A stretch of DNA of 64,000 bases from an uncultured Candidatus Saccharibacteria bacterium (lineage in GTDB: Bacteria; Patescibacteriota; Saccharimonadia; CAILAD01; GCA-016700035). Positions 10,515-53,864 of the stretch are shown piece after piece. The notes beneath the pieces were generated by a model. The model had not been told where the DNA came from. It saw nothing but the letters and a program-made list of their open reading frames with translations, and did no database searches. Each line of letters begins with the position of its first letter. Within the stretch, counting starts at the first letter, position 1. The translations under genes were made by a program, and so were the position numbers. The DNA lies in NCBI GenBank assembly GCA_964583675.1, contig CAZOVH010000001.1, positions 145,754 through 209,753 of the forward strand, given 5' to 3'.

Positions 10515-10625
10515 AGCGTGAGAATAGCGCGTTGGCGAGCCACAGCATTGACGTCATATCTGTTGCGTCGTATAATTATGCGGTCGTCTAGCGCCGGTCA
10601 CGTGCCGGTTGTTAGACGGCAACCT

Positions 10626-10700
10626 TCCGGGGTAGCTCAGCGGTAGAGCAGTTGGCTGTTAACCAATTGGCCGCCGGTTCGAATCCGGCCCCCGGAGCCA
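10626..10700 (+). tRNA. tRNA-Asn (anticodon GTT), CCA encoded
   Basis: A manual fold gives an acceptor stem TCCGGGG/CCCCGGA, a D-arm GCTCAGCGGTAGAGC, an anticodon stem GTTGG/CCAAT with loop CTGTTAA, a T-arm GCCGG-TTCGAAT-CCGGC and a terminal GCCA. Confidence 0.85.
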
Positions 10701-34137: not shown

Positions 34138-35348
34138 ACTAGTTGCGCCTCAATTTCAAGTAAGCGGTTATATTTTTCGACTCTTTCACCTCGGCGCGGC
34201 GCACCGATTTTTACTGCGTCTGCTCCAAAGCCGTACGCTAGATCGATAATGAGATGATCATTAGTTTCGCCAGAGCGGTGAGAGATAATTACTGATAGCT
34301 TATGTTTTTGAGCGGTAGTAATTGCCTCGATGGCTTGAGAGATGGTGCCAATTTGATTTGGTTTTATAATGACGCCGCGAATAGCATGTTTTTCTGCAAG
34401 ATTTGCGATGCGTACTGCATCGGTAACAGTAATATCGTCGCCAACAATCAGACCGGTTGGGTGTGTTGCGACGTAGTCTATAAAGGCTTCTTCGTCTACT
34501 TCTGCAAATGGATCTTCGAGGCTAGCGATACCATACTTGCTAGCTAGTCCAGAAAGTCGAGCACTCCAATCTTTGCTTGAGAGTTTTTGACCTTCAAATG
34601 CGTAAGTTCCGCCAGAATAAAAACTTGACGCAGCTACGTCGAGCGCAATTGCCATGCCGCCAGTTTTTTGGCACAATTCGTGCATCATTTCTAATATTTC
34701 TTCAGCTTTTGCCCCAGCTGGTGCCATGCCGCCTTCGTCTCCTACGAGCTTTGCTGATGATCCATATTTTTCAGTGAGCGTTTTTTGTAGCTCGGCATGA
34801 AAGTCATATATTTGAGAGATGGCTTGCGAGGGGGTAGTGCTTTTGGGGACGATCATAAACTCTTGTATATCCAAGCCTGGGGCATGTTTACCGCCATTTA
34901 CAAGATTGGCAAAAATATGCGGAAATGCAGGAGCCTTGCCAGAGATATTTTGAAAATATTCCCACAGTGCGAGTTTTTGTACGCGTGCCGCTAGGTGGGC
35001 GAAAGCACCAGAAAGCGCAAGCGAGGTGTTGCCGCCAAGCTCAATTTTTTGCGGTGATGGATCAACTGTTTGTAGCCAATCATCAAAGTGTTTTTGATCG
35101 CTAAAATCTCGACGTGTGATTTCGGGCTTGAGCTGAGAGTTAATCAACTTAATAGCGTTTTGTACGCCTTGGCCGTGATATAGTGTGCCTCCATCACGCA
35201 ATTCCATAGCCTCGTTTTCACCTTTGCTGGCGCCTGCCGGAACGCTGTATGTTGCACTCACGCCACTCTCTGTAGCTAACCTAACTTCAATGGTTGGTGT
35301 GCCTCGCGAGTCGAGTATTTGTAGTGCTCGAACGTCGGTAATTTTCAT
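34134..35348 (-). CDS. eno: Enolase (phosphopyruvate hydratase)
   Basis: The N-terminus ILDSRGTPTIEV and the signature SHRSGETND are both present. Confidence 0.9.
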   Translation of the reverse strand: MKITDVRALQILDSRGTPTIEVRLATESGVSATYSVPAGASKGENEAMELRDGGTLYHGQGVQNAIKLINSQLKPEITRRDFSDQKHFDDWLQTVDPSPQKIELGGNTSLALSGAFAHLAARVQKLALWEYFQNISGKAPAFPHIFANLVNGGKHAPGLDIQEFMIVPKSTTPSQAISQIYDFHAELQKTLTEKYGSSAKLVGDEGGMAPAGAKAEEILEMMHELCQKTGGMAIALDVAASSFYSGGTYAFEGQKLSSKDWSARLSGLASKYGIASLEDPFAEVDEEAFIDYVATHPTGLIVGDDITVTDAVRIANLAEKHAIRGVIIKPNQIGTISQAIEAITTAQKHKLSVIISHRSGETNDHLIIDLAYGFGADAVKIGAPRRGERVEKYNRLLEIEAQLV

Positions 35349-36622
35349 GATTTTGCCCTTAATGCAATCATAAAGTCGGAAATATTGGCGGTGGTTTTTC
35401 TGGTCTTTAGATGTGCGCCAATAGTTTTGAGCGCCTTCCAGCCGGCATTCATCTCCACTGCTTCATCGGCAGTAATGCAGGCTTTTTTGAGCGCACCAAC
35501 GCCAGTTGGATTATCCATAATGGCTCCGGCAACTGGCTCGTTATCTTTTCCGTCACTGGCACAGGATATCACCACGGTATTTTTTGGTAAGTGATTAGTG
35601 GCCGAGAGTGCAACATCTTGATTGCGCCCACCTCGTCCCGGATGAGTGACATGGACTTGGGTTTCACCGCAGCCTAGCAGAACTTCACCTGGTTTTACGT
35701 TTTTCGCAAGTTTGGGCCCCAGTCCTTTGGCAGTTTCGGCAACTTTTTTCGAATAAACTTTTGGCACATAGCCCAGTTCTCGAGCTTTGGCGGACATTGC
35801 TTCCACCACCTGTGAGCCATTGGCGATCATGATGTTGGTTATATTTTTGAAAAATTTTGGATCCTTAGGAGTTTCAGTAAACTTAAGCCCGGTGAGACGA
35901 TAGCGCTTGGCAATTTTTTCGGCATCAGCCCTAGTTGTTTTGTCGAGGACTGTGGGGCCAGACGCAACAAAGTTAAGATCATCGCCTGGGACGTCAGAAA
36001 TAATCATTGCAAGCACCGTGGCGGGGTAGGCGTATTTGGCAAAGAAGCCGCCATGAATGTGTGAGAGATGTTTGCGTACGGTGTTAATCTCCTGGATGCT
36101 AGCGCCAGCTTTTAAAAGATAATCGGAAACACGCTGCAACTCAACGCAGGTGAGGCCGGCAGGCTGGCAGAACAATGAACTGCCACCACCACAGATTGCG
36201 GTGATAACGAGATCATCTTTGGTAGCCGATTTCATGAGTTCAATGATCTTATTGGTCGCAGCTATATTTTGCTCACTCGGAAGTGGATGTGTACCTGTAA
36301 ATACGCGAATTTTACGCACGATGCGTCGGTGGATATCTATGGCATAGCCTTTCGTGACTCGCCGTTTAAGAACTTTACCAATACCTTCCACTGCCAGGCC
36401 GCTACCTTTCCCAACGCCGACAACATAAATGTTTTTGTAGCTAGAGAGTGCAAACCGTTTACCGTCAATCACGAGATGGTCGCCCACGATGGTGAGTTTT
36501 TCGGAAAACATGGTACGTAAATCTATCGAGTGATAGCCAGCTTCAGCAATCTCAAGCGCATCGCGCCTTTGAGGGGTGGTGGCGAGGGCTGAAAAATTCT
36601 TTATTACTCTTATGCTCATCAA
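35345..36622 (-). CDS. Glycerate 2-kinase (MOFRL/GckA family)
   Basis: The DUF4147 + MOFRL architecture is visible: VVGVGKGSGLAVEGI...GGGSSL...GTDGIDG-like. It is co-directional with eno. Confidence 0.7.
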   Translation of the reverse strand: MMSIRVIKNFSALATTPQRRDALEIAEAGYHSIDLRTMFSEKLTIVGDHLVIDGKRFALSSYKNIYVVGVGKGSGLAVEGIGKVLKRRVTKGYAIDIHRRIVRKIRVFTGTHPLPSEQNIAATNKIIELMKSATKDDLVITAICGGGSSLFCQPAGLTCVELQRVSDYLLKAGASIQEINTVRKHLSHIHGGFFAKYAYPATVLAMIISDVPGDDLNFVASGPTVLDKTTRADAEKIAKRYRLTGLKFTETPKDPKFFKNITNIMIANGSQVVEAMSAKARELGYVPKVYSKKVAETAKGLGPKLAKNVKPGEVLLGCGETQVHVTHPGRGGRNQDVALSATNHLPKNTVVISCASDGKDNEPVAGAIMDNPTGVGALKKACITADEAVEMNAGWKALKTIGAHLKTRKTTANISDFMIALRAKS

Positions 36623-36685
36623 GAATATTGTATCACGCAGCGTTGCTCACAGGAGTATAATTATATGTAGAGAGCGAGGTATACT

Positions 36686-36973
36686 ATGGCGCAGCAGCGT
36701 ACTGAAGAATTTAAAATTTCTGGCGAAGACATCATGGCCAAACTTAAAAAGTTGGTGAATGAAGGAAATGTTCGCAAAATTATGGTGAAGGATAAAAAGG
36801 GCAAAACAATTGCTGAGTTTCCACTTACCGTTGGAGTGGTTGGCGCTCTGTTGGTACCCGTTTTGGCTGCTGTAGGCGCGATTGTAGCCTTGGCTAGCGA
36901 ATGCATTATTTCCGTGGAGCGTGATGTGGATGAGAAGAAGCCAGAGGTAAAACTCGCAAAAAAGGAAAAGTAA
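36686..36973 (+). CDS. DUF4342-family small protein
   Basis: EEFKISGEDIMAKLKKLVNEGNVRKIMVKDKKGKTIAEFPLTVGVVGALLVPVLAAVGAI matches the DUF4342 pattern. Confidence 0.6.
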   Translation: MAQQRTEEFKISGEDIMAKLKKLVNEGNVRKIMVKDKKGKTIAEFPLTVGVVGALLVPVLAAVGAIVALASECIISVERDVDEKKPEVKLAKKEK

Positions 36974-36976
36974 GCA

Positions 36977-37852
36977 ATGGCCACTCAAGCAATCGAAATA
37001 TCTGGTCTTACAAAGAAGTTTGGGCAGCATACCGCTGTTGAGGACATTTCTTTTAGTGTAAATAAAGGTGAGATTTTTGGTTTTTTGGGGCCTAATGGGG
37101 CCGGGAAAACTACGACGATTCGCTGCTTGATGAATTTTTTGGAACCAAATAGTGGCCAGATTCGGGTGCTCGGTCACGATGCTCAACGCGAGAGTGTGGC
37201 TGTGAAGCGTGAAATTGGCTACATCGCTAGTGATAATCACTTAGTTGACCGTTGGACTGCGCGCGAGCACGTTGAGTATGTGCAGAATCTACGCGGTGGG
37301 GCCGGGGACTATAAAGGTTTGCTCGAACAGTTCTCACTTGACCTTGATCGGCGCGTAAAAGTGCTGTCTACCGGGAACAGACAAAAGTTGAATATTATTC
37401 TGGGTCTCATCGGCACTCCAAAGGTGTTGGTGCTTGATGAGCCTACACAAGGTCTGGATCCGCTTTTCCAGAACGAGGTCTATCGGGTACTAGAAGATTT
37501 TCGTGCTAGTGGTGGAACCGTATTTATTTCATCTCACAACCTTGCCGAAGTTCAGCGCATTTGTGAGCGAGTGGCAATTATTCGTAAGGGCAAATTGGTG
37601 GCCGTTGAAAGCTTGGAGAGCTTGCGCGAGAAGACCAAGCATATTGTAACTGTACGAAGTAAAAAGACAATTCCGAAGTCTGCGTTAGCAAATGAACAAA
37701 TTGACGTGCGTAGTCACACTAAAAATGAAGTGTCGTTTTTAGTGCAAGGAGATCTCAACCCCATCATCAAGATGTTGAGTAAATACCCGCTGACCGATGT
37801 AGAGATTAGTCATGCCAGCCTTGAGGAAATATTTTTGGAGATGTACGTATGA
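36977..37852 (+). CDS. ABC transporter ATP-binding protein (ABC-2 type)
   Basis: Walker A GPNGAGKTT, the signature LSTGNRQK and Walker B VLVLDEPT are all present. Confidence 0.85.
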   Translation: MATQAIEISGLTKKFGQHTAVEDISFSVNKGEIFGFLGPNGAGKTTTIRCLMNFLEPNSGQIRVLGHDAQRESVAVKREIGYIASDNHLVDRWTAREHVEYVQNLRGGAGDYKGLLEQFSLDLDRRVKVLSTGNRQKLNIILGLIGTPKVLVLDEPTQGLDPLFQNEVYRVLEDFRASGGTVFISSHNLAEVQRICERVAIIRKGKLVAVESLESLREKTKHIVTVRSKKTIPKSALANEQIDVRSHTKNEVSFLVQGDLNPIIKMLSKYPLTDVEISHASLEEIFLEMYV

Positions 37853-38655
37853 ATAGAGTAGTTATCCGCAGGTTTATACGCGATAGGCGCGTTGCACTCG
37901 CTGTCTACACGGTAGGGGCGCTATTGTTTGCGCTGATGTATACCTCACTGTATCCATCGCTAAAATCACAAATGCAAAATTATGACGATATTCTCAAGTC
38001 ATTCCCTAAAGGATTTACGGATGCACTAGGCGTAGAAGATATATCTTTCTCTTCATTTGCTAGCTATTTTAGTGCGGAGTATCTTTCGTTAATTTGGCCG
38101 CTACTTGCCATTATTTTGGCGATTTCCTTTGCAGGAAAAGCCTTAGCTGGTGCGGTTGAAACTGGTACGGCTGGCTTAGAACTTGCGCAACCAGTCAGTC
38201 GCACAGAAATATACGTATCAAAGTATGTGGGTGGAGTGGTGCTCATGACGCTTTTTACAGTGGCGTCAATTTTAGGAGTTATTCCAATCGCAGCACTTTT
38301 TGGAGCAGAATTACAACTTGCAAATTGGCTGAAAGTTTGTTTGCAGTCATGGTTGTTTATCGTGAGTATTTTCTCAATTGCCTTTGCGGCTTCCGCAGCC
38401 TTTTCTGAGCGGGCAAAAATGTATGGTGTGGTCGCCGGCGTTGTTCTATTTATGTATGTCGCACGAGTTATGTCTGGCCTGCTCGATTCGGTCCAGTGGT
38501 TGAAGTATGCATCGATCTTCCATTACTACAATGGACCAGCTGTGCTCACTAAAGGTAATTTTACCGATTGGAGCTGGTTGGTGTTTGTAGTTACGACCGT
38601 GCTGATGTTCTTGGTTGGTTTAGCTATCTGGCGCCGTCGAGATTTCGCAGTCTAG
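37849..38655 (+). CDS. ABC-2 family permease
   Basis: A 6-TM protein translationally coupled to the upstream ATPase gene. Confidence 0.6.
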   Translation: MNRVVIRRFIRDRRVALAVYTVGALLFALMYTSLYPSLKSQMQNYDDILKSFPKGFTDALGVEDISFSSFASYFSAEYLSLIWPLLAIILAISFAGKALAGAVETGTAGLELAQPVSRTEIYVSKYVGGVVLMTLFTVASILGVIPIAALFGAELQLANWLKVCLQSWLFIVSIFSIAFAASAAFSERAKMYGVVAGVVLFMYVARVMSGLLDSVQWLKYASIFHYYNGPAVLTKGNFTDWSWLVFVVTTVLMFLVGLAIWRRRDFAV

Positions 38656-39815
38656 TTTTTAGATGAGGCTTTGCTCGTAGAGAGCATCCAGGCGGTTACC
38701 ATCGAGTTAAGTCGGCGGATTTTATAAGACACTTTGTGGCCAAACGTACCGCCAAAGTGGAAGGCAAGCCATTCGCCAACGCGAGTATAGGCTTCTACAA
38801 AAATTGCTAGATACGGTCGTTGTTTTAGGTTGCGAAGAGCAGAATTCGTTTGCGCGTACATGGAGTCACGAGATTTTCCACCAGTTTTGCAGTACAGAGC
38901 AAAGTGTTCACAGTTATTTGAGATGAGATTATATTTCATTGTTTTGCCGGCTTGCGAAATAGCGGTCTTAATTACGACGTCTATCGGCGCAGCTTTAATA
39001 TCTGGATACACCCAGTGTTGCGGTTCGCGGCCACGTAAAAATTCTTCCCAACTGGTGCGATGCACTATGCTGTCGTCGCGGTAGTGTACAACTTCGTTAT
39101 TACCAATGTAGACACCTAGATGGAAACCCGAGCCAAAATAGCAGGCGTACAATTCACCCTTTTTACGCTTCACAACCTGAGGCTCAATTTCGGTGAAAAT
39201 AATTGGTAGGCTGTTGTTTTTACTGCGGTACGCCATGATGAGCAACATAATGCCGAATGAGATGAGTCGAGCTGCTAAAAGAATAATCACGCCATTCACG
39301 CGTAGCTGAGGGATAAGCACGATGGTACTGAGTCCGAGGAAAAGGGTAAAGCAGGCATTTAGGAAGAATAGAAAGCGTGATTTTATGCCGCGTGATCGCC
39401 AAGCAACGACAAACTGCACGGTGCCATCTATGGTGAATAATATCCCCAATATTAGTGCTACGAAGCCAATTGAGATGTTCTCGTTAGTGAGAAAGATTAA
39501 GCCGGCCCCTATATCAATGAAGGAATGGATCAAAATAAGAACAATCCCACGCAGGCTGTAGCCCTTACTACTTTTTCCGAGAAAGAGCTGCACAAGTTTA
39601 AGTCCACCGCTGGCGATAAGTCCAAAACTTAAAAGGATTTGCAAAGGATCAAAGAAAATAAAAGGTGCCTCTACAATGAGTATGCCGGCAAGTACAAAGA
39701 GCGAACCGATCACTGCAAGGCGAGTGCGATGTTGGCGGATAACTACAAGTTCACTGCTTAGGGCGGCGGTTGTAGATTTTTTGGCGGGCATAATTGTATA
39801 TAAGTATACGAACAC
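38652..39815 (-). CDS. Fusion protein: HdeD/DUF308-like membrane domain + C-terminal LRAT/NlpC-P60 superfamily domain
   Basis: The N-terminal half holds about six TM segments with GxxxG-rich helices. The C-terminal half carries the LRAT/H-REV107 catalytic motif NCEHFALYC and an upstream His (HLGVYIG). The start is either ATG 39791 or GTG 39815. Confidence 0.55.
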   Translation of the reverse strand: MFVYLYTIMPAKKSTTAALSSELVVIRQHRTRLAVIGSLFVLAGILIVEAPFIFFDPLQILLSFGLIASGGLKLVQLFLGKSSKGYSLRGIVLILIHSFIDIGAGLIFLTNENISIGFVALILGILFTIDGTVQFVVAWRSRGIKSRFLFFLNACFTLFLGLSTIVLIPQLRVNGVIILLAARLISFGIMLLIMAYRSKNNSLPIIFTEIEPQVVKRKKGELYACYFGSGFHLGVYIGNNEVVHYRDDSIVHRTSWEEFLRGREPQHWVYPDIKAAPIDVVIKTAISQAGKTMKYNLISNNCEHFALYCKTGGKSRDSMYAQTNSALRNLKQRPYLAIFVEAYTRVGEWLAFHFGGTFGHKVSYKIRRLNSMVTAWMLSTSKASSKN

Positions 39816-39874
39816 TTCTGGTTAAAATACAGCCCCAGATAGACGAAAATTTTTGACGGGTGTAGTATGCACGT

Positions 39875-40945
39875 ATGGTACGCGCAAAAAACATCATGCT
39901 CGAAAGAGCTCGCATTGCCGAGCAGCAGGCTCTGCGTTGGGGAATACTATCGGCCTTGTTGGCTGCAGCGGTGGCACTGGCCTGGTATTTGGGTAAAGGT
40001 GCGCAACTTGTTCCGCTGACAGGTGATCTCTCAATTACACGTTTGGCGGTATATCTAGGTGCATTGGCAAGTTTTCTATTCTTTGCGTATTTCTACCGCG
40101 CTGGTGAACAGTGGCTACATAAAAATACTCAACAACCACTCCCTAAGCGTTGGATTTTTTGGCGCGACACGCTAACTTTGGCGTTTGCATATGCAATCGT
40201 GTCCCTAGCGGCAATGGCTCTAGCGGCCTTTGTGTTTTCAGAAGCCTTTATTGGTCTTGAGTTAGATCCGTATAGTTCGGCATTAGCTGTGGGCGTTGTA
40301 GTGGGTATGGTGGCGTATGTAAATATTAATTTGGCCTATACCGTCTCGGTTAATCGAATTTTGGCAGTATTGGGTATTGTGTTGGTTGGCGGTGTTTTGT
40401 TTGCCATGGTTACCAACGGTCAGGCAGATTGGTGGCAGGTGCATTTTAGCTACCTTGGTATGGCTCAATCTAATGCTGCCCGAGCGTTCAATTTTACCCT
40501 CATCTTCTCTGGCTTGGTGATGCTAGCGCTTACCGAAAACTTGTTTAATACTCTCGCCCCCGCATTTAATGGCAAAAATTCTGGTATGCGTTTTAATGTT
40601 ATAAAGGCAGCTTTTGTGTTTATTGCTATTGCCCTGGCTTGCGTTGGTATTTTTCCGTATGAGGCCGACAGTATAAATGCCACCCTGCATAATCTTTCGG
40701 CGTACGGCATGGTGCTAGGTTTTCTTTTTCTGATTTCTACTTTGCGCTGGACATCTCCTAAACTCTCTCCGGAATTCTTTGTGCTTTCTTATATGATGGG
40801 TGGAGCATTAATAGTCTGTTACGCGCTATTCGCATTTGTAGGTTATTTTAATCTCACAGCTTTCGAACTCTTAAGCTTTGGAATTAGCTTTGCATGGCTT
40901 ATGCTATACCTAAAGAATTTGTCGCAATTAATAGAAAAGAGGTAG
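39875..40945 (+). CDS. Hypothetical polytopic membrane protein (~10 TM)
   Basis: Hydrophobic profile only. Confidence 0.45.
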   Translation: MVRAKNIMLERARIAEQQALRWGILSALLAAAVALAWYLGKGAQLVPLTGDLSITRLAVYLGALASFLFFAYFYRAGEQWLHKNTQQPLPKRWIFWRDTLTLAFAYAIVSLAAMALAAFVFSEAFIGLELDPYSSALAVGVVVGMVAYVNINLAYTVSVNRILAVLGIVLVGGVLFAMVTNGQADWWQVHFSYLGMAQSNAARAFNFTLIFSGLVMLALTENLFNTLAPAFNGKNSGMRFNVIKAAFVFIAIALACVGIFPYEADSINATLHNLSAYGMVLGFLFLISTLRWTSPKLSPEFFVLSYMMGGALIVCYALFAFVGYFNLTAFELLSFGISFAWLMLYLKNLSQLIEKR

Positions 40946-40948
40946 GAA

Positions 40949-41335
40949 ATGGCACAAAATTCTGTACAAAGAAATATGAGTACTTCATCATCTTCGGCGG
41001 AGTGGCAAAATGGCATGTCACTTATCGTGGGGATTGTGATTATTCTAGTCGGCGTCGGATTTCTCTCTGCAATTCTTGCAAAATCCGATACGGCTAACCT
41101 TATACCGCGTCAGTCAGTGCCAATTTTGGTATTCCTCGGGGGAGTAATCATGGCCGGAGCTGGTAAGGCAGCCCAGGGCCTTGGCTTAATGGTGCTTGGT
41201 TTGTTGTTTATTCTTCGTAATATGGGCGTGTTTGCGGTCGACACCTTTGATACGGCTTGGTATGGAATTTTAGTGCTCGTTGGTTTGCTGTTTGTTCTCA
41301 TGGCTCAGGTTAAGCCAAAAGATAAAAAAGCCTAG
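40949..41335 (+). CDS. Hypothetical small membrane protein
   Basis: Three hydrophobic helices, beginning 4 nt after the preceding gene. Confidence 0.4.
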   Translation: MAQNSVQRNMSTSSSSAEWQNGMSLIVGIVIILVGVGFLSAILAKSDTANLIPRQSVPILVFLGGVIMAGAGKAAQGLGLMVLGLLFILRNMGVFAVDTFDTAWYGILVLVGLLFVLMAQVKPKDKKA

Positions 41336-41406
41336 GCGGCTTGTAAGATTTTTCACCAGTTTATGAAGTGCTTATGGTATAATAGTGCTCGTAGATTCGG
41401 GGGATT

Positions 41407-41970
41407 ATGGCTTACGGACCAACGTTAAAAAACACATCAAACCGCACATCAAAGCTGAAATGGCTACTCGTAGCAGTGGTCGTGTTAGCAGTTTTAGGGC
41501 TTGGCGGTTTCTTTGGTTATCGTTGGTATATGGACAGCAAGGCTCAGGACCCAGTATCTGAGCAGAATCAGCAGGAGAGCACGCAGGATGAAGAAGTTGG
41601 CGTACAAGATAATCTCACTCCTTCACCAAGTACAACCACTAGCCCTGCGAGTAGTATTCCAGACCAAGAACAGCAGGCCTCGAACAGTACTGGCATAACA
41701 ATTTCATCACCGAGCACAGGCTCTACTGTGAAAGCCGGCACTAAGCTAGAGGGCACAGCGCCAACTACATACACAAAAGTTTCGTATCGTATTCAAAGCG
41801 ATGAGCGCGGACTGGTTGGACAAGGCGAATTAAATGTCGTGAAGGGTAAATATTCGGGAACAATCGGATCTGGTGGCGCTAGCGGGAATGGCTACATTGA
41901 AGTATTCGTTGTAAGCGCTAATGGTAACGAAGAGAAGCACACAAAAGTAACCGTAAAGTTGGGTGGCTAA
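41407..41970 (+). CDS. Membrane-anchored protein with an S/T-rich linker and C-terminal beta domain
   Basis: An N-terminal TM segment is followed by low-complexity STTTSPASS and a globular C-terminus. Confidence 0.45.
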   Translation: MAYGPTLKNTSNRTSKLKWLLVAVVVLAVLGLGGFFGYRWYMDSKAQDPVSEQNQQESTQDEEVGVQDNLTPSPSTTTSPASSIPDQEQQASNSTGITISSPSTGSTVKAGTKLEGTAPTTYTKVSYRIQSDERGLVGQGELNVVKGKYSGTIGSGGASGNGYIEVFVVSANGNEEKHTKVTVKLGG

Positions 41971-41992
41971 TATGACTTGGAGGGTGAAAACT

Positions 41993-44089
41993 ATGAAGCG
42001 AACTTTTAGCACGCTTGTTGCAAGTATCGGTCTTTTTGCAGTAGTAGTGCTCTTTGCTGCACCGGCACACGCGGCCTATAACTCCAATAATATTATTGAT
42101 GATGGTCGTTTTACGAACCATACAACAATGGACGAAGCCGCCATTCAGGCTTTTATGAATGCACGCAATAGTGGGCTTAAAAACTATGTAGATCCTTCAG
42201 TTAATCAATCGGCGGCAAAAATTATTCGTGATGCGGCTTGGGACTTTGGTATCAATCCTCAAGTCATTATGGCGACCCTGCAAAAAGAGCAATCGCTGAT
42301 GACTAATCCATCGCCATCGGCCTCTAATATTAATTTCGCCATGGGCTATGGCTGCCCAACTACTGGCAGCTGCTCGTACCCAGGGTTTTATCAGCAGGTG
42401 AGGAATGGGAGCTGGCAACTTCGTTTTAATATGCATCGAGCGGCCGGTAACAATGGTACCTGGACCGGTCCATCCGGTGCAGTGTGGGGTAACTCTTCAA
42501 TTTCGTACGCCTGCCGTAATGCGACCAGCTACTACAGCACAGGATTATTTCCGGGGCGCAACGTAACGTTTTACGCTCATACCAACGGTCAAGCCTATGC
42601 CACAATCAATATTGCAAATGCTTCTACGGCGGCCATGTATTGTTATACCCCGCACGTCTATAACCCAAGCGGCGCTCCAGTGTACTACTCAGGTAGTTAT
42701 AACTTTGTAGTTTTTTACGAACGTTGGTTTGGTCCAACAACTGGAGAAGCGTATAAATCTGAGTATGCCGGACAGTCCAGCTATAAAACCCTCTCGCCAT
42801 CAGTAACTACGGCAGTTGGTCATATACGCTATAGAAATATAGGTAATGAAACGTGGTACGACGATATTGGTTTATCTTCCGCTCCGGCAGGCACTAAGCC
42901 AGTCCATCTAGCAACTTCGAACCCACTCAATCGCAGCAGTCCGGTGGGCTACCCATGGGGAGGTGATCGCAATCGACCGACCGGCGCCTTTGCGGCTGTC
43001 TATGAATCTGATGGTGTAACTCCTGCTGCGGATCAGCACAGGGCAGTTACAGGGCAAATTGTTCAATTTAATATTACTTTTGGTGCAGATAATACCGTTC
43101 CGGAAGGTGTCTATCGCGAGTTTTTCCAACCTATCGTTGAAGGTGGATCAACCATGAATACGCCAGGTACTTATCTTGATATAACGGTACAGCGACCTAC
43201 GTATACCTCTCAGTTTTCAGGCCACTGTGCGTATCCAACAATGGTTGCCAATAATAGCTCTGCACCGTGTTTTATGAGATATAAAAATACTGGAAACGTC
43301 CCGTGGTACGATAGCTCCTCTGCGGCAGCAAATAATGCAAAACCAGTTGTTTTGTCTACTGCTAGATCGGTGAATCGCTACAGTCTACTTGGTACCTTAT
43401 GGAACCGTGATCAGAACCGTGCCTCCACCCGCTTTGCAGCAGTGTATGAGGCGGATGGCACAACTCTTGCTTCTAATCAAGCAGTAGCGCAACCTGGTCA
43501 GATAGTGCAATTCAACTTTAATCTTTGGGCTGCCCAAGTGCTTCGGCCAGGTGTCTATCGTGAGTTCTTCCAACCCATCGTTGAAGGTGGTTCAACTATG
43601 AATGACCCCGGTACGTTTATAGACATAACTGTGCAGGCCCCGACATATGTATCTCAATTTGCTGGACAGTGCGCGTATCCAATAATGGTTGCCAATAATA
43701 GCTCTGCACCCTGCTTCTTGCGCTATAAGAACATAGGTAATGTTACTTGGTATGATGGGGTGACGGCTCCAGCTAATGGTGCACGTCCAGTAGTACTTGC
43801 TACTGCGCGATCAATTAATCGCTACAGTCTACTCGGAACTTTATGGAACCGTGATCAGAACCGTGCTTCTACCCGCTTTGCAGCAGTGTATGAGGCAGAT
43901 GGGGCAACCCCTGCTTCCAATCAAGGCGTTGTGCAGCCAGGGCAAATCGTGCAGTATAACTTTAATCTGTGGGCAGCGGCTGTACTTAGCCCAGGTGTCT
44001 ATCGCGAGTTTTTCCAGCCAATCGTAGAAGGTGGAACTACTATGAATGATCCAGGTACGTATATAAATATTACTGTCAATCGTCCATAA
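41993..44089 (+). CDS. Secreted protein: signal peptide + lytic-transglycosylase/muramidase-like N-domain + three tandem ~145-aa repeats
   Basis: The signal peptide is MKRTFSTLVASIGLFAVVVLFAAPAHA. An SLT-like segment follows (ATLQKEQSLMTNPSPSASNINFAMGYG, compare the GH23 E-S catalytic motif). Three repeats share ...QPGQIVQFNFNLWAA.VL.PGVYREFFQPIVEGGSTMNDPGT.IDITVQ.P. Confidence 0.6.
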   Translation: MKRTFSTLVASIGLFAVVVLFAAPAHAAYNSNNIIDDGRFTNHTTMDEAAIQAFMNARNSGLKNYVDPSVNQSAAKIIRDAAWDFGINPQVIMATLQKEQSLMTNPSPSASNINFAMGYGCPTTGSCSYPGFYQQVRNGSWQLRFNMHRAAGNNGTWTGPSGAVWGNSSISYACRNATSYYSTGLFPGRNVTFYAHTNGQAYATINIANASTAAMYCYTPHVYNPSGAPVYYSGSYNFVVFYERWFGPTTGEAYKSEYAGQSSYKTLSPSVTTAVGHIRYRNIGNETWYDDIGLSSAPAGTKPVHLATSNPLNRSSPVGYPWGGDRNRPTGAFAAVYESDGVTPAADQHRAVTGQIVQFNITFGADNTVPEGVYREFFQPIVEGGSTMNTPGTYLDITVQRPTYTSQFSGHCAYPTMVANNSSAPCFMRYKNTGNVPWYDSSSAAANNAKPVVLSTARSVNRYSLLGTLWNRDQNRASTRFAAVYEADGTTLASNQAVAQPGQIVQFNFNLWAAQVLRPGVYREFFQPIVEGGSTMNDPGTFIDITVQAPTYVSQFAGQCAYPIMVANNSSAPCFLRYKNIGNVTWYDGVTAPANGARPVVLATARSINRYSLLGTLWNRDQNRASTRFAAVYEADGATPASNQGVVQPGQIVQYNFNLWAAAVLSPGVYREFFQPIVEGGTTMNDPGTYINITVNRP
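42752..44086 (+). repeat. Three tandem ~440-bp intragenic direct repeats
   Basis: Copies 2 (about 43198-43643) and 3 (about 43644-44086) are nearly identical at nucleotide level over long runs, for example gctacagtctacttggtaccttatggaaccgtgatcagaaccgtgc. Copy 1 is more diverged. Confidence 0.7.
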
Positions 44090-44124: not shown

Positions 44125-45087
<963 letters not shown>

Positions 45088-45103
45088 TATAATTATCTAC
45101 TAG

Positions 45104-45928
45104 ATGGAACACGTTGTAGTCATTCGTCCTAAGAAACGACTCGCAATCGACTGGAAGGAGCTCAAGGAATACCGCGAGCTCTTCTTCTACTTCGCTTGGC
45201 GTGATGTAAAGGTGCGCTACAAGCAAACCGCAATTGGTATTTTGTGGGCAATTTTGCAGCCATTTATTCAGATGGTGGTATTTACGCTGTTCTTCAATAA
45301 AGCTGTGGGTATAGAGACGGGCTCAGCCGTTCCTTATGCAATTTTTTCTTATACTGGCTTATTATTCTGGAACTATTTCTCGCAGGCTTTGCAGCGTTCG
45401 GCAAATAGCCTTGTAGATAATCAGGCTGTTGTAACAAAGGTGTATTTTCCGCGCATTATTCCACCAATTTCCTCCACGATTGTCTCGTTTATAGATTTTT
45501 TGTTTGCGTCGATTATTTTTATAGGCCTCATGATTTATTTTCAGTTTGTACCAACTCTCTTGGGTGTACTTCTAGTAATTCCAGCTATAATAGTGACCTT
45601 CCTAGCTGCTACTGGACCGGGCCTCTTCCTAGCTGCAGTTAACGTGAAATACCGTGACGTGAAGCAGGCATTGCCGTTTCTTATTCAACTAGGCCTGTTC
45701 CTTACGCCAGTTATCTATCCGGTTACAGCCATCCCCGAGCAGTACCAGTGGCTACTGTATTTAAACCCAATGACAGGCGTGATTAATGCAATGCGTGCAA
45801 GCCTACTTGGAGCTGGAGAAATTAACTGGGCCCTTACGGCGCTTTCGGTTGCGATGGCAGTTATTATGTTTATTGGTGGATTGTATTACTTCAAGGGTAG
45901 AGAAAAGGAATTTGCGGATATTATATGA
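45104..45928 (+). CDS. wzm: ABC-2 polysaccharide export permease (Wzm/TagG-like)
   Basis: A 6-TM ABC-2 permease lying upstream of, and coupled to, the Wzt-like ATPase gene. Confidence 0.75.
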   Translation: MEHVVVIRPKKRLAIDWKELKEYRELFFYFAWRDVKVRYKQTAIGILWAILQPFIQMVVFTLFFNKAVGIETGSAVPYAIFSYTGLLFWNYFSQALQRSANSLVDNQAVVTKVYFPRIIPPISSTIVSFIDFLFASIIFIGLMIYFQFVPTLLGVLLVIPAIIVTFLAATGPGLFLAAVNVKYRDVKQALPFLIQLGLFLTPVIYPVTAIPEQYQWLLYLNPMTGVINAMRASLLGAGEINWALTALSVAMAVIMFIGGLYYFKGREKEFADII

Positions 45929-47208
45929 GCAAGCCAGCTATAGAAATTAAGGACCTATCTAAGGCATATATGATTGGTCATGAGCGAGAAGCCATGGCTG
46001 GCACGATGACGTTTCGGGATTCGCTGGTAAATATTGCCCGTAAGCCTTATGAGCTTTTTACTGGCCATCAACTAAAAAAAGAAAAATTCTGGGCGCTAAA
46101 GGATGTCAATCTAGAAATACAACAGGGTGATGTAGTTGGCATTATTGGTCGCAACGGATCGGGGAAATCAACTCTTCTCAAAGTTTTGTCTCGCATAGTG
46201 GAACCAACCAAAGGTGAAGTGATAATGCGCGGCCGCGTCGCGAGCTTGCTTGAGGTAGGAACAGGTTTTCATCCTGAGCTTACTGGACGTGAGAATGTAT
46301 ATTTTAACGGTGCCATTCTTGGAATGACCCGTAAGGAGATACAGTCTAAATTTGATGAGATTGTAGCATTTTCAGAAGTTGAGAAATTTTTGGATACGCC
46401 TGTAAAATTTTATTCTTCTGGCATGTATGTGCGACTTGCGTTTGCAGTTGCGGCTCATCTTGATCCGGATATTCTCATCGTTGATGAAGTGCTAGCTGTA
46501 GGGGATGCGGCTTTCCAAAAGAAATGTTTGGGGAAGATGAAAGATGTGGCTGGGCAAGGGCGAACCGTATTATTTGTTAGCCATAGCATGGATTCAGTAC
46601 GGAAGTTGTGTACAAAGGGGCTTTATATCAAGGCAGGAGAACAGCAAGGTACGATCGAGGATATAGATAAGGCTATAGGGAAATATACAAACGATATATC
46701 TACAGAGCTGAGTACCGAATGGGTTAAAAATGATGAGAATTTTTTCTCGAATGATTGGTATGATATTAATAGTATGAGAATTACTGACTCTAAGTTTAGT
46801 ACTATTAAGAAAATACCTACAAAAGATAGTGAAGCATGGATTGAGATAGAGGGTACCTTCAATAAAATTAGTCCAGAATTGAAGCTGGGTTACACCCTTT
46901 ATTCTGATGAAGGGACAATTCTCTATACTTCTGTGCAGACTGATATTGAAGAGAAAAAATGGCCAAAACTTAAGACTGGTACTTTTAAGCTTCGTTCAAG
47001 ATTACCTTTTTCAATGCTGAAGACAGGAAAGTATATTTTAGAGATGAATTCAAGTATTCATAATAAAAAAATGCTCAGTGGCTTAGGGCTTGAAGCCCCT
47101 AGTATTAGCTTTGAGATTATTGGAGATGCCAGTAAATCCCCCCACTATGTATTGTCTCGCGAGGGGGTGATTGCACCTATAATAACGTGGGAGTATAAAA
47201 ATGATTAA
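45925..47208 (+). CDS. wzt: Polysaccharide export ABC ATPase (Wzt/TagH-like) with a C-terminal ~180-aa extension
   Basis: Walker A GRNGSGKST and the signature YSSGMYVRLAFAVA are present. The beta-rich C-terminal domain is analogous to the glycan-binding module of O-antigen Wzt. Confidence 0.8.
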   Translation: MSKPAIEIKDLSKAYMIGHEREAMAGTMTFRDSLVNIARKPYELFTGHQLKKEKFWALKDVNLEIQQGDVVGIIGRNGSGKSTLLKVLSRIVEPTKGEVIMRGRVASLLEVGTGFHPELTGRENVYFNGAILGMTRKEIQSKFDEIVAFSEVEKFLDTPVKFYSSGMYVRLAFAVAAHLDPDILIVDEVLAVGDAAFQKKCLGKMKDVAGQGRTVLFVSHSMDSVRKLCTKGLYIKAGEQQGTIEDIDKAIGKYTNDISTELSTEWVKNDENFFSNDWYDINSMRITDSKFSTIKKIPTKDSEAWIEIEGTFNKISPELKLGYTLYSDEGTILYTSVQTDIEEKKWPKLKTGTFKLRSRLPFSMLKTGKYILEMNSSIHNKKMLSGLGLEAPSISFEIIGDASKSPHYVLSREGVIAPIITWEYKND

Positions 47209-47893
47209 TCGCCATTATATAAGAAGAAAAGCTAGTGCATTGCGTCATCATACCGAAAAGCATGAAGAAGGAATAATCCCGAAAAGCCTGATAGCTAGGT
47301 ATCTGCCCCCAAATCCTGTAATACTGGAGGCGGGAGCACATGTGGGGACCGATACTTTGCAAATGTGCAGTATGTGGCCAGATGCGAGAATACATGCCTT
47401 TGAGCCTGTGTCAGACATATTCGCGCAGCTAGAAAAAAATACCAAGCATTTATCGATGGTCAACCGTTATAAGCTAGGGCTGGGCAATAAGACTGAACAG
47501 AGAAAAATATATGTTAGTAGCGGCGCCTCAGATGCGTCCAGTTCTCTGCTAAAGCCAAAAAAACATCTAGAGATAAACCCTAAGGTTAAGTTTCAGTCGA
47601 TGGAGAACATTCAAGTAACAACGATTGCCGATTGGGCACGTAAGGAGGGGATTAATAAGGTTGACTTCATGTGGCTCGACCTACAGGGCATGGAGCTGCC
47701 GGTTCTGCAAAATACTGGTTCAATTTTACAGGGCGTGAAGATGATTCTCGCAGAAGTAAGTCTGATTGAGACTTATGAAGGTGTTTCAATGGCAGATGAC
47801 CTTACGAGATTCCTCGAACAGGAGGGTTTTAGGGTCTTGGTTGAGGAGATGCCTTACCCGGATATGGGTGACATTTTATATGTACGGAAATAG
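47201..47893 (+). CDS. FkbM-family SAM-dependent methyltransferase
   Basis: ILEAGAHVGTDTL...FEPVSDIFAQLEKN...YKLGLGNKTEQRKIY is the FkbM pattern. Confidence 0.7.
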   Translation: MINRHYIRRKASALRHHTEKHEEGIIPKSLIARYLPPNPVILEAGAHVGTDTLQMCSMWPDARIHAFEPVSDIFAQLEKNTKHLSMVNRYKLGLGNKTEQRKIYVSSGASDASSSLLKPKKHLEINPKVKFQSMENIQVTTIADWARKEGINKVDFMWLDLQGMELPVLQNTGSILQGVKMILAEVSLIETYEGVSMADDLTRFLEQEGFRVLVEEMPYPDMGDILYVRK

Positions 47894-47896
47894 TAC

Positions 47897-48739
47897 ATGT
47901 TGACTGTTGAATTTCATGACAAGCTTTTCGAAGGCTATAGTAGTGCAGCTCGAGGAGATTTGAAATGCAAACCCAAGCATATTTTTTTTGATCGAACAGC
48001 TAATCATAGCATTGCCTTATTTACTGATGAGAGTCTTGATGAGGTTAACTCATCAAAAGCGGTAATAAATTTAGCATGGCTAGTAGAGTCTCCTGATTTT
48101 AAAAAGAATATTTATAAAAAAATGAGGAAGAAAAAGGTCTACTCGAAGTTTGATCGGATATATACGTTCGACTCTGCGCTACTCGCAAAAGATCCAAGAT
48201 TTGTGATGCTGCCTGTTGGTGGCAGTTGGATTGATGACAAAAACTGGCGAATATACAATAAATACCTCAACCTATCAATGATTGCATCACGAAAAAAACA
48301 GTTGAAAGGGCATAGGTTGCGCCATGAAATTATTGGAAAATTTGCCGATTACCTCGATGAGGTATATGGTAGTGGGTATTTAGCATTTGATAATAAGATA
48401 GATGTCATGAAGCCCTTTAGATATAGTATTGTTATCGAAAACGGCAGGCGTGATTACTATTTTACGGAGAAATTGATCGATTGTTTTGCGGTGGGCACTA
48501 TACCTATTTATTGGGGCTGCCCCAGTATTGGGAAATTTTTCAATCCGGAGGGAATACTCCCTTTTAGGACTTTGCGTGACCTAAAAAAAATCTTAGCTAA
48601 TATTTCAGAGGAAGACTATTTTTCCAGGATGGCAGCTGTTAAAGATAATCTAGCTCGTGCAAAGGATTATGTGATGCCAGAGGATAATATGTATGAACTT
48701 ATGAAGAGAGATCAGCTGTTCTCAACCGAGTTAACATAG
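47897..48739 (+). CDS. GT10-like alpha-1,3/4-fucosyltransferase
   Basis: [46 protein letters not shown] matches the GT10 C-terminal motif (FENS...YVTEK..DA....IPIYWG.P.....FNP). Confidence 0.6.
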
Positions 48740-48750
48740 GGGGGTATATT

Positions 48751-49308
48751 TTGAAGCAATTAATAAATCTAATGCTTAGCAAGTTTGGCTACAATATAAA
48801 GCGTATACCTCAGGTTTCTGACAGGGATCTCCTAAACGGCACTTACCCAGGGGTTACATTTATAGGTCCATTAGATAATTACAATATTGGTGAAAAAGTT
48901 ACTATTGGCTTAGGGAGTATACTTTTTGCTTGTGAAAATATAACAATTGGTGACAATTCGATGATTGCAGTAGGTGTAATCATTCACACGAGTACGCATG
49001 ATTATGCAGCACATCCAATGTGGAAGTATCGTATTGATCGCCCTGTATATATTGGTGATTATTCATGGATTGGAGCGGGGGCAATAATACTGCCAGGGGT
49101 TAGAATTGGTAGAAATGCTGTAGTTGGGGCTGGCTCAGTTGTTACTGCGAATGTTCCAGAAGGAGCTATAGTTGCGGGAAATCCAGCGAGGATAATTAAG
49201 CATCGAAATAAGGCGGACTACCTCAAAAAGCCTGATATTATTGAGTTTGAGGAAGCAATTACAATAAAAGAGCCTTTCGGTGTTAACAAGATAAAAAGAA
49301 GGAGGTAA
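48751..49308 (+). CDS. Left-handed beta-helix (hexapeptide) O-acetyltransferase, WcaF/Mac-like
   Basis: Hexapeptide repeats are present ([15 protein letters not shown]...[31 protein letters not shown]). The gene has an apparent TTG start. Confidence 0.7.
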
Positions 49309-49312
49309 AGAG

Positions 49313-49966
49313 TTGAATATTTATAGGAAAATACGTGGAAAGATTCTGAAGCCAATCAGAACTGATATTCAATCCGAGAGGGTGAAGCCCTGGTTTGAGA
49401 TAGGTGGCGATAGGACCCTGCGGCTTAACTATGACTTGAATGAAAAATCTATAGTTTTCGATCTTGGTGGCTATGAGGGACAATGGGCTAGCGATATTTA
49501 TTCCAAGTATCGGCCAAAGATATATGTCTTTGAACCAATGCCTGAGTATGCAAAGAATATCAAAGAGCGATTTAAGAAGAATCCTGACATAAAAACGTTT
49601 ATATTTGGGTTGTCTAATGAGGATAAGAAGATAAGTCTTACAGTCGATGGTGATGCTAGTTCGGGTATCAAAGAATCGGACAATGCCATAGAGGCAGAAC
49701 TTAAGAAGGCAGCTACTTTTATAGATAATCTTGGAGTGAATAAGATTGATCTAATGAAAATAAATATTGAAGGTGGAGAATATGATCTACTAGATCACCT
49801 GATAGAAACAGGGTGGATTAAGAATATTGATAATATTCAGGTGCAGTTTCATGATTTTTTCGATGAAGCAGAGGGGAGAATGAAGAAAATTCAGGCCCAG
49901 CTGAAGAAAACTCATAAAATTACCTATCAATATCCATTTGTTTGGGAAAATTGGAAACTTAAGTAG
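49313..49966 (+). CDS. FkbM-family methyltransferase (second copy)
   Basis: FDLGGYEGQWASD...VFEPMPEYAKNIKERF, with an apparent TTG start. Confidence 0.7.
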   Translation: MNIYRKIRGKILKPIRTDIQSERVKPWFEIGGDRTLRLNYDLNEKSIVFDLGGYEGQWASDIYSKYRPKIYVFEPMPEYAKNIKERFKKNPDIKTFIFGLSNEDKKISLTVDGDASSGIKESDNAIEAELKKAATFIDNLGVNKIDLMKINIEGGEYDLLDHLIETGWIKNIDNIQVQFHDFFDEAEGRMKKIQAQLKKTHKITYQYPFVWENWKLK

Positions 49967-49971
49967 TTGAT

Positions 49972-50808
49972 ATGATACGTGTAGTATTACAGGGGGGGCT
50001 AGGCAATCAGATGTTTCAGTATGCTGCCGCTCGAGCGCTCGCTGAGCGGAATAATACGAATGTAGTGTTGGACTTATCGTGGTTTGATCAGGATTTTGAT
50101 CTCGGTTCTACATCTCGAGAGTATGAATTGTCTTGCTTTGTTTTAGATGCAATTACTCCTAAGTCCAAGAACACTATTCGCCAGAAGTTACAGGGACGAT
50201 TCGCGAAAATTTACACTGAACCGCACTTTCATTGCGATCCAGCATTTACGGATCTTCCGAAAAATACTGTCATGAGTGGCTACTTTCAATCTGAGAAATA
50301 TTTTCACGATATACGTGGAATTTTACTGCAGGATTTTTTATGGGCAAAAGAACCGAACGGTAAGAACAAGGATCTTTTAGGGCAAATCGAGGGAGACAGA
50401 TTAAGTGTATCTGTGCATGTTCGCCGAGGTGATTATGTCTCAAATAAAAGTGCAGCAAAATTCCACGGACTTGCTGGGATTGACTACTACAAAGCTGCAG
50501 TAAAAATGGTAGCTGAACAATTGGAAAGCTTAAATTTATATGTGTTTTCCGATGACCCGGATTGGTGTAAGAAGAATTTAAAGTTTACGCAGCCAACGAC
50601 ATATATCTCACATAACAACGATGGCTCAGAGGATATGCGCCTAATGAAAGCCTGCAAGCATAACATTATTGCAAACTCGAGTTTTTCTTGGTGGGGAGCT
50701 TGGCTTAACGAAAATCCGAATAAGATTGTGATTGCACCAAAAAAGTGGTTTTCTCACCCTGAAAGCAATACGAAAGATGTAATACCAGGCTCGTGGCACA
50801 AATTGTAA
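49972..50808 (+). CDS. GT11 alpha-1,2-fucosyltransferase
   Basis: LQGGLGNQMFQYAAARALA is the GT11 signature, and HVRRGDY is also present. Confidence 0.8.
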   Translation: MIRVVLQGGLGNQMFQYAAARALAERNNTNVVLDLSWFDQDFDLGSTSREYELSCFVLDAITPKSKNTIRQKLQGRFAKIYTEPHFHCDPAFTDLPKNTVMSGYFQSEKYFHDIRGILLQDFLWAKEPNGKNKDLLGQIEGDRLSVSVHVRRGDYVSNKSAAKFHGLAGIDYYKAAVKMVAEQLESLNLYVFSDDPDWCKKNLKFTQPTTYISHNNDGSEDMRLMKACKHNIIANSSFSWWGAWLNENPNKIVIAPKKWFSHPESNTKDVIPGSWHKL

Positions 50809-52635: not shown

Positions 52636-52686
52636 TGTGCTTGTACTTAGTTGCTTGTTAATAGGGTTTATTACAGGAGTATATTG

Positions 52687-53862: not shown

Positions 53863-53864
53863 AC

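Follow-up and report, generated by a model that had tools for sequence, protein, structure and literature searches.

A predicted modular cell-wall hydrolase with FW/NBR1-like repeats beside a surface-glycan cluster of a Saccharimonadales bacterium

Wall turnover and surface architecture are almost unknown in Saccharibacteria and other members of the Candidate Phyla Radiation (CPR), although the surface is the site of their epibiotic life. We analysed a 64,000-nucleotide (nt) stretch of DNA (the window) from a Saccharimonadales bacterium, in which a single open reading frame on the + strand (41993-44089, stop codon 44087-44089) encodes a protein of 698 amino acids (aa) and stands directly before a set of surface-glycan genes. 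What would such a protein do at the cell surface? An earlier note on this DNA had described it as a secreted putative muramidase, and the two-part layout proposed there, an enzyme-like N-domain followed by C-terminal tandem beta-sandwich repeats of a binding type, is supported in outline.

We consider it probable, at about 0.6, that the product of the gene is a secreted, modular hydrolase of the cell wall, of the autolysin type, in which a lysozyme-fold N-domain is combined with FW repeats that bind a wall glycopolymer. The protein would be exported by the Sec pathway, and the N-domain would then cut the glycan backbone of peptidoglycan with Glu99 as general acid. This domain would represent a divergent, undescribed branch of the lysozyme superfamily, closest to the N-acetylglucosaminidases of glycoside hydrolase family 73 (GH73). 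The three FW/NBR1-like repeats would form a multivalent targeting module that holds the enzyme on the cell surface, and their ligand would be a glycopolymer of the wall, most likely the one made by the adjacent Wzm/Wzt-dependent cluster. The enzyme would serve wall remodelling and daughter-cell separation, in relatives alongside an amidase or an S8 protease with the same repeats.

The gene and its N-domain

The ATG at 41993 is the likely start of the gene, because a Shine-Dalgarno-like GGAGG lies 9 nt 5' of it (41979-41983, + strand, read from the sequence) and because homologues, which start with MKRTF or MRRTF, begin at the equivalent methionine. By its sequence the N-terminus, MKRTFSTLVASIGLFAVVVLFAAPAHA before the predicted cleavage point and Ala after it, resembles a Sec signal peptide (aa 1-27, 41993-42073, + strand) with an AHA/A cleavage motif, and the signal peptide is kept in the homologues P0001-P0003 and P0047.

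The N-domain covers aa 28-254 (227 aa, 42074-42754, + strand) and is predicted to contain a lysozyme-superfamily core, which makes it the putative catalytic module. An AlphaFold (AF2) model built from 31 sequences is mostly helical and has a mean predicted local distance difference test score (pLDDT) of 92.7 and a predicted template modelling score (pTM) of 0.91. Foldseek returned no significant match to this model (best E 0.12 in the PDB and 0.011 in BFVD), and both top lists consist almost exclusively of lysozyme-superfamily peptidoglycan glycosidases. The GH73 enzymes among them (LytB, AtlE, SagB, Ecd09610 and phage glucosaminidases) align over 99-128 columns with a probability of 0.89-0.99 and a root-mean-square deviation (rmsd) of 3.1-5.8 Å. 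The PDB list is headed by LytB, AtlE, SagB and Ecd09610 together with g-type lysozymes and MltC. In BFVD the best matches are phage beta-N-acetylglucosaminidases (probability 0.99, rmsd 3.1-3.2 Å, 99-120 columns), and soluble lytic transglycosylase (SLT) and goose egg-white lysozyme (GEWL) folds appear there too. SLT, MltC and g-type (goose) lysozymes were found with E values of at least 0.18 and template modelling (TM) scores of at most 0.34, and a GH23 chitinase is also on the list. The GH73 enzymes rank above the SLT/GH23 enzymes, with better probability and rmsd.

The predicted general acid is Glu99 (E72 of the domain, codon 42287-42289, + strand), the Glu of the K-E pair in the motif TLQKEQSL. 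Glu99 is invariant in both alignments of homologues (31 and 72 diverse sequences), and the model has it at the C-terminal end of helix 62-73. In GH73 and related families the Glu that donates the proton is found close to the C-terminal end of a helix (PMC4633669), and E72 of the domain occupies that place as a conserved Glu at a helix end. In the 72 sequences, which go down to 20% full-length identity, the invariant residues include this K-E pair, GYGCP, a Gln (Q108) and Y-x-Y-T-P; the last belongs to a Y-x-Y-T-P-H motif at aa 216-221 (42638-42655, + strand), whose invariant columns are Y189, Y191, T192 and P193 of the domain. We compared the N-domain profile by hhalign with Escherichia coli FlgJ and with a 75-sequence FlgJ profile, GH73 being the family that this profile-profile comparison covered. 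A single segment of 20-21 columns was aligned, without significance (P = 0.02-0.04 overall and 0.023-0.036 with the 75-sequence profile), and it places Glu99 on the catalytic Glu of FlgJ. In a greedy extension of this alignment, which is non-significant, Y-x-Y-T-P-H is collinear with the YATDPHY of GH73; the YATD motif itself, as described for GH73 (PMC4633669), is absent from the N-domain.

No membership in GH23 or GH73 was found by hidden Markov model (HMM). The N-domain, searched alone, as 31 separate homologues and as a profile, matched nothing in Pfam, NCBIfam, PHROGs or the PDB sequences, and the GH73 glucosaminidase model PF01832 gave no Pfam, NCBIfam or PHROG match. The predicted fold and a weak profile-profile similarity would place the domain in the lysozyme superfamily, nearer to GH73 than to SLT/GH23. 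The N-domain would probably work like a GH73-type lysozyme-fold enzyme, and we assign it to neither family.

The N-domain family is large, with 5,051 clusters at 50% identity reaching E <=1e-3 and 2,858 reaching E <=1e-30. In 72 members the fusion partners include FW, B_lectin, DUF5648, RicinB, LGFP, FG-GAP and others. Since these partners are varied and of lectin-like or wall-binding kinds, the N-domain behaves as a catalytic module would. Some proteins (P0121, P0122 and P0123, 824-1116 aa) contain three to four tandem copies of the N-domain, which is unusual for a catalytic module.

The C-terminal repeats

The C-terminal 444 aa are made of three head-to-tail units of 148 aa each: R1 (aa 255-402, 42755-43198), R2 (aa 403-550, 43199-43642) and R3 (aa 551-698, 43643-44086), all on the + strand and all with the predicted FW/NBR1-like beta-sandwich of the immunoglobulin (Ig) type. 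Comparing the protein with itself gave a clear period, with 201 identities at an offset of 148 and about 55 at background offsets, and Tandem Repeats Finder (TRF) reported a period of 444 nt with a score of 1170. The number of repeats given in the earlier note was thus right, and their length, 145 aa in that note, is 148 aa.

Other features that the note had ascribed to the repeats were not found in that form. R1 is just 41-43% identical to R2 and R3, so that the three copies are not nearly identical. R2 and R3, said to be almost the same even in DNA, share 82% of their amino acids and 76% of their nucleotides; in register they match exactly over no more than 27 nt at a stretch, and different codons are used for 53 of the 121 conserved residues. 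A Cys pair is present in R2 and R3 only, R1 having no Cys. Composition agrees in part with the suggested richness in Trp, Tyr and Asn: Asn is enriched to about 9% in R2 and R3 and Tyr amounts to 5-6%, while Trp (1.4-2.0%) is not enriched.

The history of the repeats can be read from close orthologues. P0001 (94% identical) and P0002 (88%) have three repeats, and P0003 (88%, 550 aa) has two. In a matrix of identities, orthologous R2 units are 87-96% and orthologous R3 units 89-93% identical, and the paralogous pair R2/R3 is 78-82% identical. Because orthologous units are closer to each other than R2 is to R3, the R2/R3 duplication, as dated from this matrix, is older than the divergence from relatives of 88-94% identity, and nothing in it points to concerted evolution. 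The matrix therefore contradicts the recent duplication or gene conversion that the earlier note had proposed. The variation in copy number that it predicted is real between lineages: the two-repeat orthologue P0003 sits at the syntenic locus, and among the first 120 homologues the N-domain proteins carry from 0 to 4 repeats, with at least 4 as the upper end of the family range. In P0003 the second unit resembles R2 but has a tail like that of R3, which fits a deletion by unequal crossing-over. An assembly artefact, which the note had named as a way in which the repeats might collapse, is excluded: the units are at most 76% identical in DNA, the same 698-aa protein is present without a difference on three independently assembled contigs, and orthologues that are 94% and 88% identical have three repeats as well. 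No further FW or N-domain copies were found elsewhere in the 64-kb window.

What kind of domain is repeated? The Pfam search of the window protein itself gave no match to PF16158 (N_BRCA1_IG, the FW/NBR1-like family). The model matches 19 of 32 aligned homologous units (best E 1.5e-5), and relatives whose units are 40-50% identical exceed its 28-bit gathering cut-off at 37-49 bits. R3 was the unit chosen for structure modelling, and its AF2 model from 32 sequences is all-beta with a pLDDT of 96.1. Searched against the PDB by Foldseek, its best match is the FW domain of human NBR1 (4ole, E 1.4e-4, probability 1.00, TM 0.56/0.66), and the top three matches are all NBR1 4ole. The FW domain of ILRUN (6vhi), fungal Nbr1-Ams1 (7vqo) and the N-terminal sandwich of GH123 enzymes follow, and Ig-like domains of adhesins are among the lower-ranked matches. 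The repeats and NBR1 have a KNxGN..W motif in common. Not all of the four tryptophans that define FW domains are present; two are conserved among the 32 units, W36 being invariant and W68 present in at least 90%. The units are also about 40 aa longer than a canonical FW domain and have a conserved NR.S.FG..W...NR insert. On the evidence of model and profile, the repeats are FW/NBR1-like Ig beta-sandwiches and kin of PF16158.

The earlier note had expected carbohydrate-binding modules (CBMs). Neither the protein nor its homologous units matched a Pfam CBM model, and the structural matches are FW domains and the GH123 N-terminal domain, so no recognised CBM is present and the fold is FW/NBR1-like instead. 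Bacterial FW domains, located near C-termini and without an assigned function, have been described before (PMC3357945, PMC9582228).

A marginal profile match (E 0.021) was seen between positions 46-114 of the repeat profile and PDB 5hno, the C-terminal glycan-binding domain of Wzt, which binds O-antigen caps. The match may be fortuitous or may hint at glycan binding, and we take it as a lead from profile comparison only. The domain type of 5hno (Wzt_C) is encoded two genes downstream. As a further observation, the 2-kb bin 42001-44000, which coincides with the hydrolase gene and its repeats, has a GC skew of -0.017 and a GC content of 0.478, and the adjacent bins have a skew of about +0.12 and a GC content of about 0.45.

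Glycan clusters, exchange of the C-terminal end and other functions

A surface-glycan cluster begins 38 nt after the hydrolase gene (44128-53862, + strand; 44128-54824 when counted as a whole). It encodes a GDP-fucose-synthase-like epimerase, Wzm, Wzt (with Wzt_C), two FkbM-type methyltransferases, a hexapeptide acyltransferase, a glycosyltransferase of family 11 (GT11), two GT2 and a GT4. The cap-recognition domain Wzt_C, the FkbM-type methyltransferases, the GT11 fucosyltransferase and the GDP-fucose-synthase-like gene suggest that this cluster, which would depend on its ABC transporter, makes a methyl-capped, fucose-containing surface polymer.

We scanned one genome per GTDB species and found 570 relatives, the best 80 of which were used for all locus counts. 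These 80 come from Saccharimonadales, from other Patescibacteria (Berkelbacteria, Doudnabacteria, Komeilibacteria and CPR2) and from Actinomycetota, where cultured Microbacterium, Okibacterium, Agromyces, Cellulomonas, Gryllotalpicola and others carry the N-domain at 30-34% identity. In 26 of the 80 loci, 10 of them among the 20 from Actinomycetota, a Wzm homologue and a Wzt homologue are both no more than 8 kb away; by our own estimate, which assumes random placement and one to three such transporters per genome, about 1-2.5% would be expected by chance. These transporter calls were made by phmmer alone except for the Okibacterium locus, which was checked with Pfam. Its order is pyruvyl transferase, Wzt (with Wzt_C), Wzm, the N-domain gene, GT2, epimerase, WsaF, GT2, RmlA and RmlC. 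Other loci adjoin Wzx-type clusters.

Two Saccharimonadales loci show the repeats on a second enzyme. In L091 a Gmad2-like gene is followed by an N-domain with four FW units, an S8 protease with three FW units and a glycan cluster. In L092 a small protein is followed by an N-domain with FW units, an Amidase_2 protein with three FW units, the reading frame of which overlaps by 4 bp, and a glycan cluster. Since the next gene encodes Amidase_2 or S8 with three FW units, the repeats are probably a targeting device common to murein and surface hydrolases. The amidase, which shares the repeats and is translationally coupled, is the strongest argument from gene context that both proteins would act on the wall.

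A natural exchange at the domain boundary was found by comparing the window with a close strain. Locus L009, from another metagenome, is 95.4% identical to the window over 31994-42738, and blastn finds no DNA similarity beyond this breakpoint (42738, no strand assigned), which lies 17 nt before R1. Within the final 700 nt ahead of this point (42000-42700) identity drops from about 98% to about 75%. Such a decay of identity is typical beside a hypervariable locus. The L009 protein, P0047, retains the N-domain and ends in an unrelated WRFENLDG...LRHAW repeat, which has no Pfam family, and the cluster downstream of it is of the Wzx type with different transferases and replaces the window-type glycan cluster entirely. 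The N-domain is 83-94% conserved while the adjoining cluster is completely replaced. Two other syntenic types have FW units and a B_lectin-like end. Judging from these alignments, one hypervariable surface island contains both the binding end and the glycan genes, and the two can be replaced together. In P0047 the C-terminal part (aa 250-636, L009 positions 10001-11911) has about eight WRFENLDG...YYD..GNLRHAW repeats and looks, from their pattern, like a beta-propeller lectin.

Several points weigh against a wall hydrolase targeted by glycopolymer-binding repeats. No glycoside hydrolase sequence model in the libraries searched (Pfam, NCBIfam, PHROGs and PDB sequences) matches the N-domain, each structural match is individually non-significant (best E 0.011) and covers about 100-130 of the 227 residues, and the hhalign P value is just about 0.02-0.04 over 20 columns. 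The FW domains characterised so far bind proteins, not glycans (PMC9233695, PMC3357945). Moreover, L007 has a different C-terminal end beside a cluster that resembles that of the window, and L004 has the end seen in L007 beside a different cluster. These two loci rule out a strict one-to-one pairing of ends with clusters; what remains is that the two lie together and, in one clean case, were replaced together.

A wider proposal can be drawn from the same evidence, and we put it forward tentatively, as possible rather than likely. The N-domain would be a new lysozyme-superfamily glycoside hydrolase family and a conserved, hitherto overlooked part of the wall-glycopolymer loci (Wzm/Wzt or Wzx) of monoderm phyla (Patescibacteria and Actinomycetota), and the C-terminal modules would be glycan-specific address tags, passed on and exchanged with the cluster as a "serotype-matched autolysin" cassette. 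Wall-glycopolymer binding would then be the first function for bacterial FW domains, the ancestor of the domain in the autophagy receptor NBR1.

Saccharibacteria are epibionts of Actinomycetota, and the wall that is cut might be that of the host instead of the producer's own. The protein would then be a lytic weapon or feeding enzyme, with repeats that bind host surface glycans and an N-domain that opens the host wall for nutrients or attachment, and variation of the C-terminal end would track host range. The organism, a Saccharimonadales bacterium, and the C-terminal modules, which are highly variable, lectin-like and turn over between near-identical strains as under host-specificity or arms-race selection, speak for this, and the same catalytic assignment is compatible with it. 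We nevertheless regard it as unlikely. In free-living cultured Actinomycetota the N-domain family is found within the organisms' own clusters for wall polysaccharide, which argues for a housekeeping origin; a host-directed enzyme would not be expected to be linked to the glycan cluster of the producer and replaced along with it; and no secretion or injection system is encoded near the hydrolase gene. The pairing with a peptidoglycan amidase and the conservation of the N-domain despite cluster replacement weaken the idea further, and action on the producer's own wall is the reading that we prefer. Should host walls be among its substrates too, the enzyme would be a candidate effector of episymbiosis.

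A little less probable still is that the N-domain cleaves the polysaccharide exported by Wzm/Wzt or Wzx, for chain-length trimming, release or turnover. Hydrolases and lyases are encoded in many exopolysaccharide clusters. The association with genes for glycopolymer export and biosynthesis is conserved across phyla, the Okibacterium gene lying between Wzm and GT2, and the lysozyme fold includes enzymes that act on other substrates than peptidoglycan, such as the GH23 chitinase among the structural matches. The lack of a match to peptidoglycan-hydrolase HMMs leaves the substrate free. Peptidoglycan is nevertheless favoured, because the nearest structural neighbours are overwhelmingly specific for it (GH73 and GH23), because an N-domain that stays 83-94% conserved across a complete replacement of the glycan cluster is hard to square with specificity for the polymer, and because in relatives the N-domain has as its partner a peptidoglycan amidase with FW repeats of its own. 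The presence of the family in free-living Actinomycetota weakens a polymer-trimming role as well.

If peptidoglycan is the substrate, the chemistry could differ. A GH23-type lytic transglycosylase would cut the same polymer without hydrolysis and yield 1,6-anhydro-MurNAc, and the earlier note had likened the N-domain to such enzymes. SLT, MltC, Slt and g-type lysozymes are in both fold-search lists, and a single invariant acidic residue is followed by a Ser two positions on. The segment with Glu and Ser to which the note pointed does hold the invariant Glu, at a helix end as in lysozyme-superfamily enzymes, but Glu and Ser are not adjacent: the residues are K98-E99-Q100-S101 (consensus QKEQSL), E-Q-S in place of the canonical adjacent E-S of SLT. 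The SLT model PF01464 had no match at E up to 10 with the protein or up to 1 with the 31 homologues, and none was found in the PDB with the profile. GH73 matches rank higher with better probability and rmsd, and the second conserved motif resembles, in a non-significant alignment, the YATD region of GH73. The likeness to SLT/GH23 therefore failed the HMM comparison that the note itself had named, the predicted fold is nearer to GH73, and we consider a lytic transglycosylase improbable. Least probable, by a small step, is a non-catalytic surface protein, structural or adhesive, with a degenerate lysozyme-like N-domain for binding or scaffolding, for no membership in a catalytic family is demonstrable and the repeats resemble Ig-like adhesin domains in lower-ranked structural matches, but K-E, Y-x-Y-T-P and Q108 are strictly invariant in more than 70 sequences down to 20-30% identity, as is typical of an active site.

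Known systems and neighbouring genes

Modular wall hydrolases are a well-known kind of protein, and the predicted enzyme can be compared with several of them. AcmA/AcmD of Lactococcus lactis is a GH73 N-acetylglucosaminidase with three C-terminal LysM repeats (PMC3738550). Similar to AcmA, the window protein has a signal peptide, an N-terminal domain that is predicted to cleave glycan and three C-terminal tandem repeats, and a role in cell separation and autolysis is predicted for it. Unlike AcmA, its catalytic domain fails PF01832 and resembles GH73 at the level of fold and motif only; its repeats are FW/NBR1-like sandwiches of 148 aa and not LysM repeats of 45 aa, and the proposed ligand is a glycopolymer and not peptidoglycan.

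LytB of Streptococcus pneumoniae combines choline-binding repeats with GH73 (PMC4633669; PDB 4q2w, 7pj3) and, with a Foldseek probability of 0.89-0.92, is one of the structural neighbours with the best support for the N-domain. LytB has a single essential Glu near a helix end, of which Glu99 is the predicted counterpart. Its repeat module, without which LytB is neither localised nor active, targets teichoic acid, and for the window repeats we likewise propose a wall glycopolymer as target. In contrast to LytB, the order of the modules is reversed, the repeats are FW and not choline-binding units, and the sequence similarity is undetectable by HMM. The repeats agree with FW/NBR1 domains (PF16158; 4ole, 6vhi, 7vqo) in fold, in the KNxGN..W motif and in the C-terminal placement of the bacterial ones (PMC3357945). 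The characterised FW domains are cytosolic and bind proteins, whereas the window units are predicted to be extracellular, stand in tandem on a predicted wall hydrolase, are about 40 aa longer and have two conserved Trp.

For gene context the window protein can be compared with an autolysin whose gene is likewise linked to a cluster for synthesis and ABC export of a wall glycopolymer, and whose catalytic and binding families differ from those found here. This is LytD of Bacillus subtilis, which has GH73 and tandem wall-binding repeats and is encoded beside the tag teichoic-acid genes and the tagGH exporter genes. To our knowledge, no cassette-like co-replacement has been described for the LytD locus.

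What is new here is the N-domain family, the FW domain as a putative common targeting module of wall hydrolases, and the exchange of the C-terminal end with the glycan locus. In the literature on Saccharibacteria, NBR1 and peptidoglycan hydrolases or autolysins we found no description of the N-domain family, of FW targeting of wall hydrolases or of cassette exchange. The N-domain is a large putative catalytic family (about 5,000 clusters) without an entry in any of the curated libraries searched, and it stands beside wall-glycopolymer loci in two phyla. Targeting of wall hydrolases is a concrete candidate function for bacterial FW/NBR1-like domains, the role of which has been open since 2011-2012, and the natural swap between 95%-identical strains pairs alternative C-terminal ends with alternative glycan clusters. 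If none of this holds, the protein is an ordinary-looking modular autolysin made from unfamiliar parts.

Upstream of the hydrolase gene, the three membrane or secreted reading frames listed in the earlier note (39875-41970) are present. The nearest (41407-41970, + strand) ends 22 nt 5' of the hydrolase gene, and no terminator-like site was found between the two. It encodes a Gmad2-like protein of 187 aa that has a membrane anchor at its N-terminus, a linker rich in Ser, Thr and Gln and an Ig domain resembling Gmad2 (Pfam Gmad2, E 4.3e-5, just under the cut-off), and the PDB held no informative relative of it. A Gmad2-like homologue lies at most 100 bp upstream in 16 of the 60 loci from Patescibacteria and in none of the 20 from Actinomycetota, and one is also directly upstream in L002-L009, L091 and L092. 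By analogy with SpdC-SagB, the Gmad2-like protein could be a regulator or inhibitor of the hydrolase. The other two genes (39875-41335, + strand) encode membrane proteins, DUF998-like (356 aa) and LiaF-TM-like (128 aa), which are syntenic in close relatives only and were not found at the 80 more distant loci. Of the three genes that the note had joined with the hydrolase gene in a possible cell-surface module, the Gmad2-like gene alone is a neighbour of wide conservation.

A phage or prophage origin of the hydrolase gene is ruled out, with no PHROG match and no phage genes nearby. Further upstream, a gene at 38652-39815 (- strand), syntenic in close relatives, encodes a 387-aa membrane protein with DUF308 repeats and a domain of the LRAT/NlpC-P60 superfamily (Pfam E 5.5e-17), which from its domains may be a membrane-tethered wall peptidase or acyltransferase. 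A tRNA at 10626-10697 (+ strand) is the sole Rfam match in the window at gathering thresholds. Finally, genes for a 2-hydroxyacid dehydrogenase, enolase and a DUF4147/MOFRL glycerate-kinase-like protein (33124-36622, - strand) lie upstream of the surface block and are syntenic in all close relatives.

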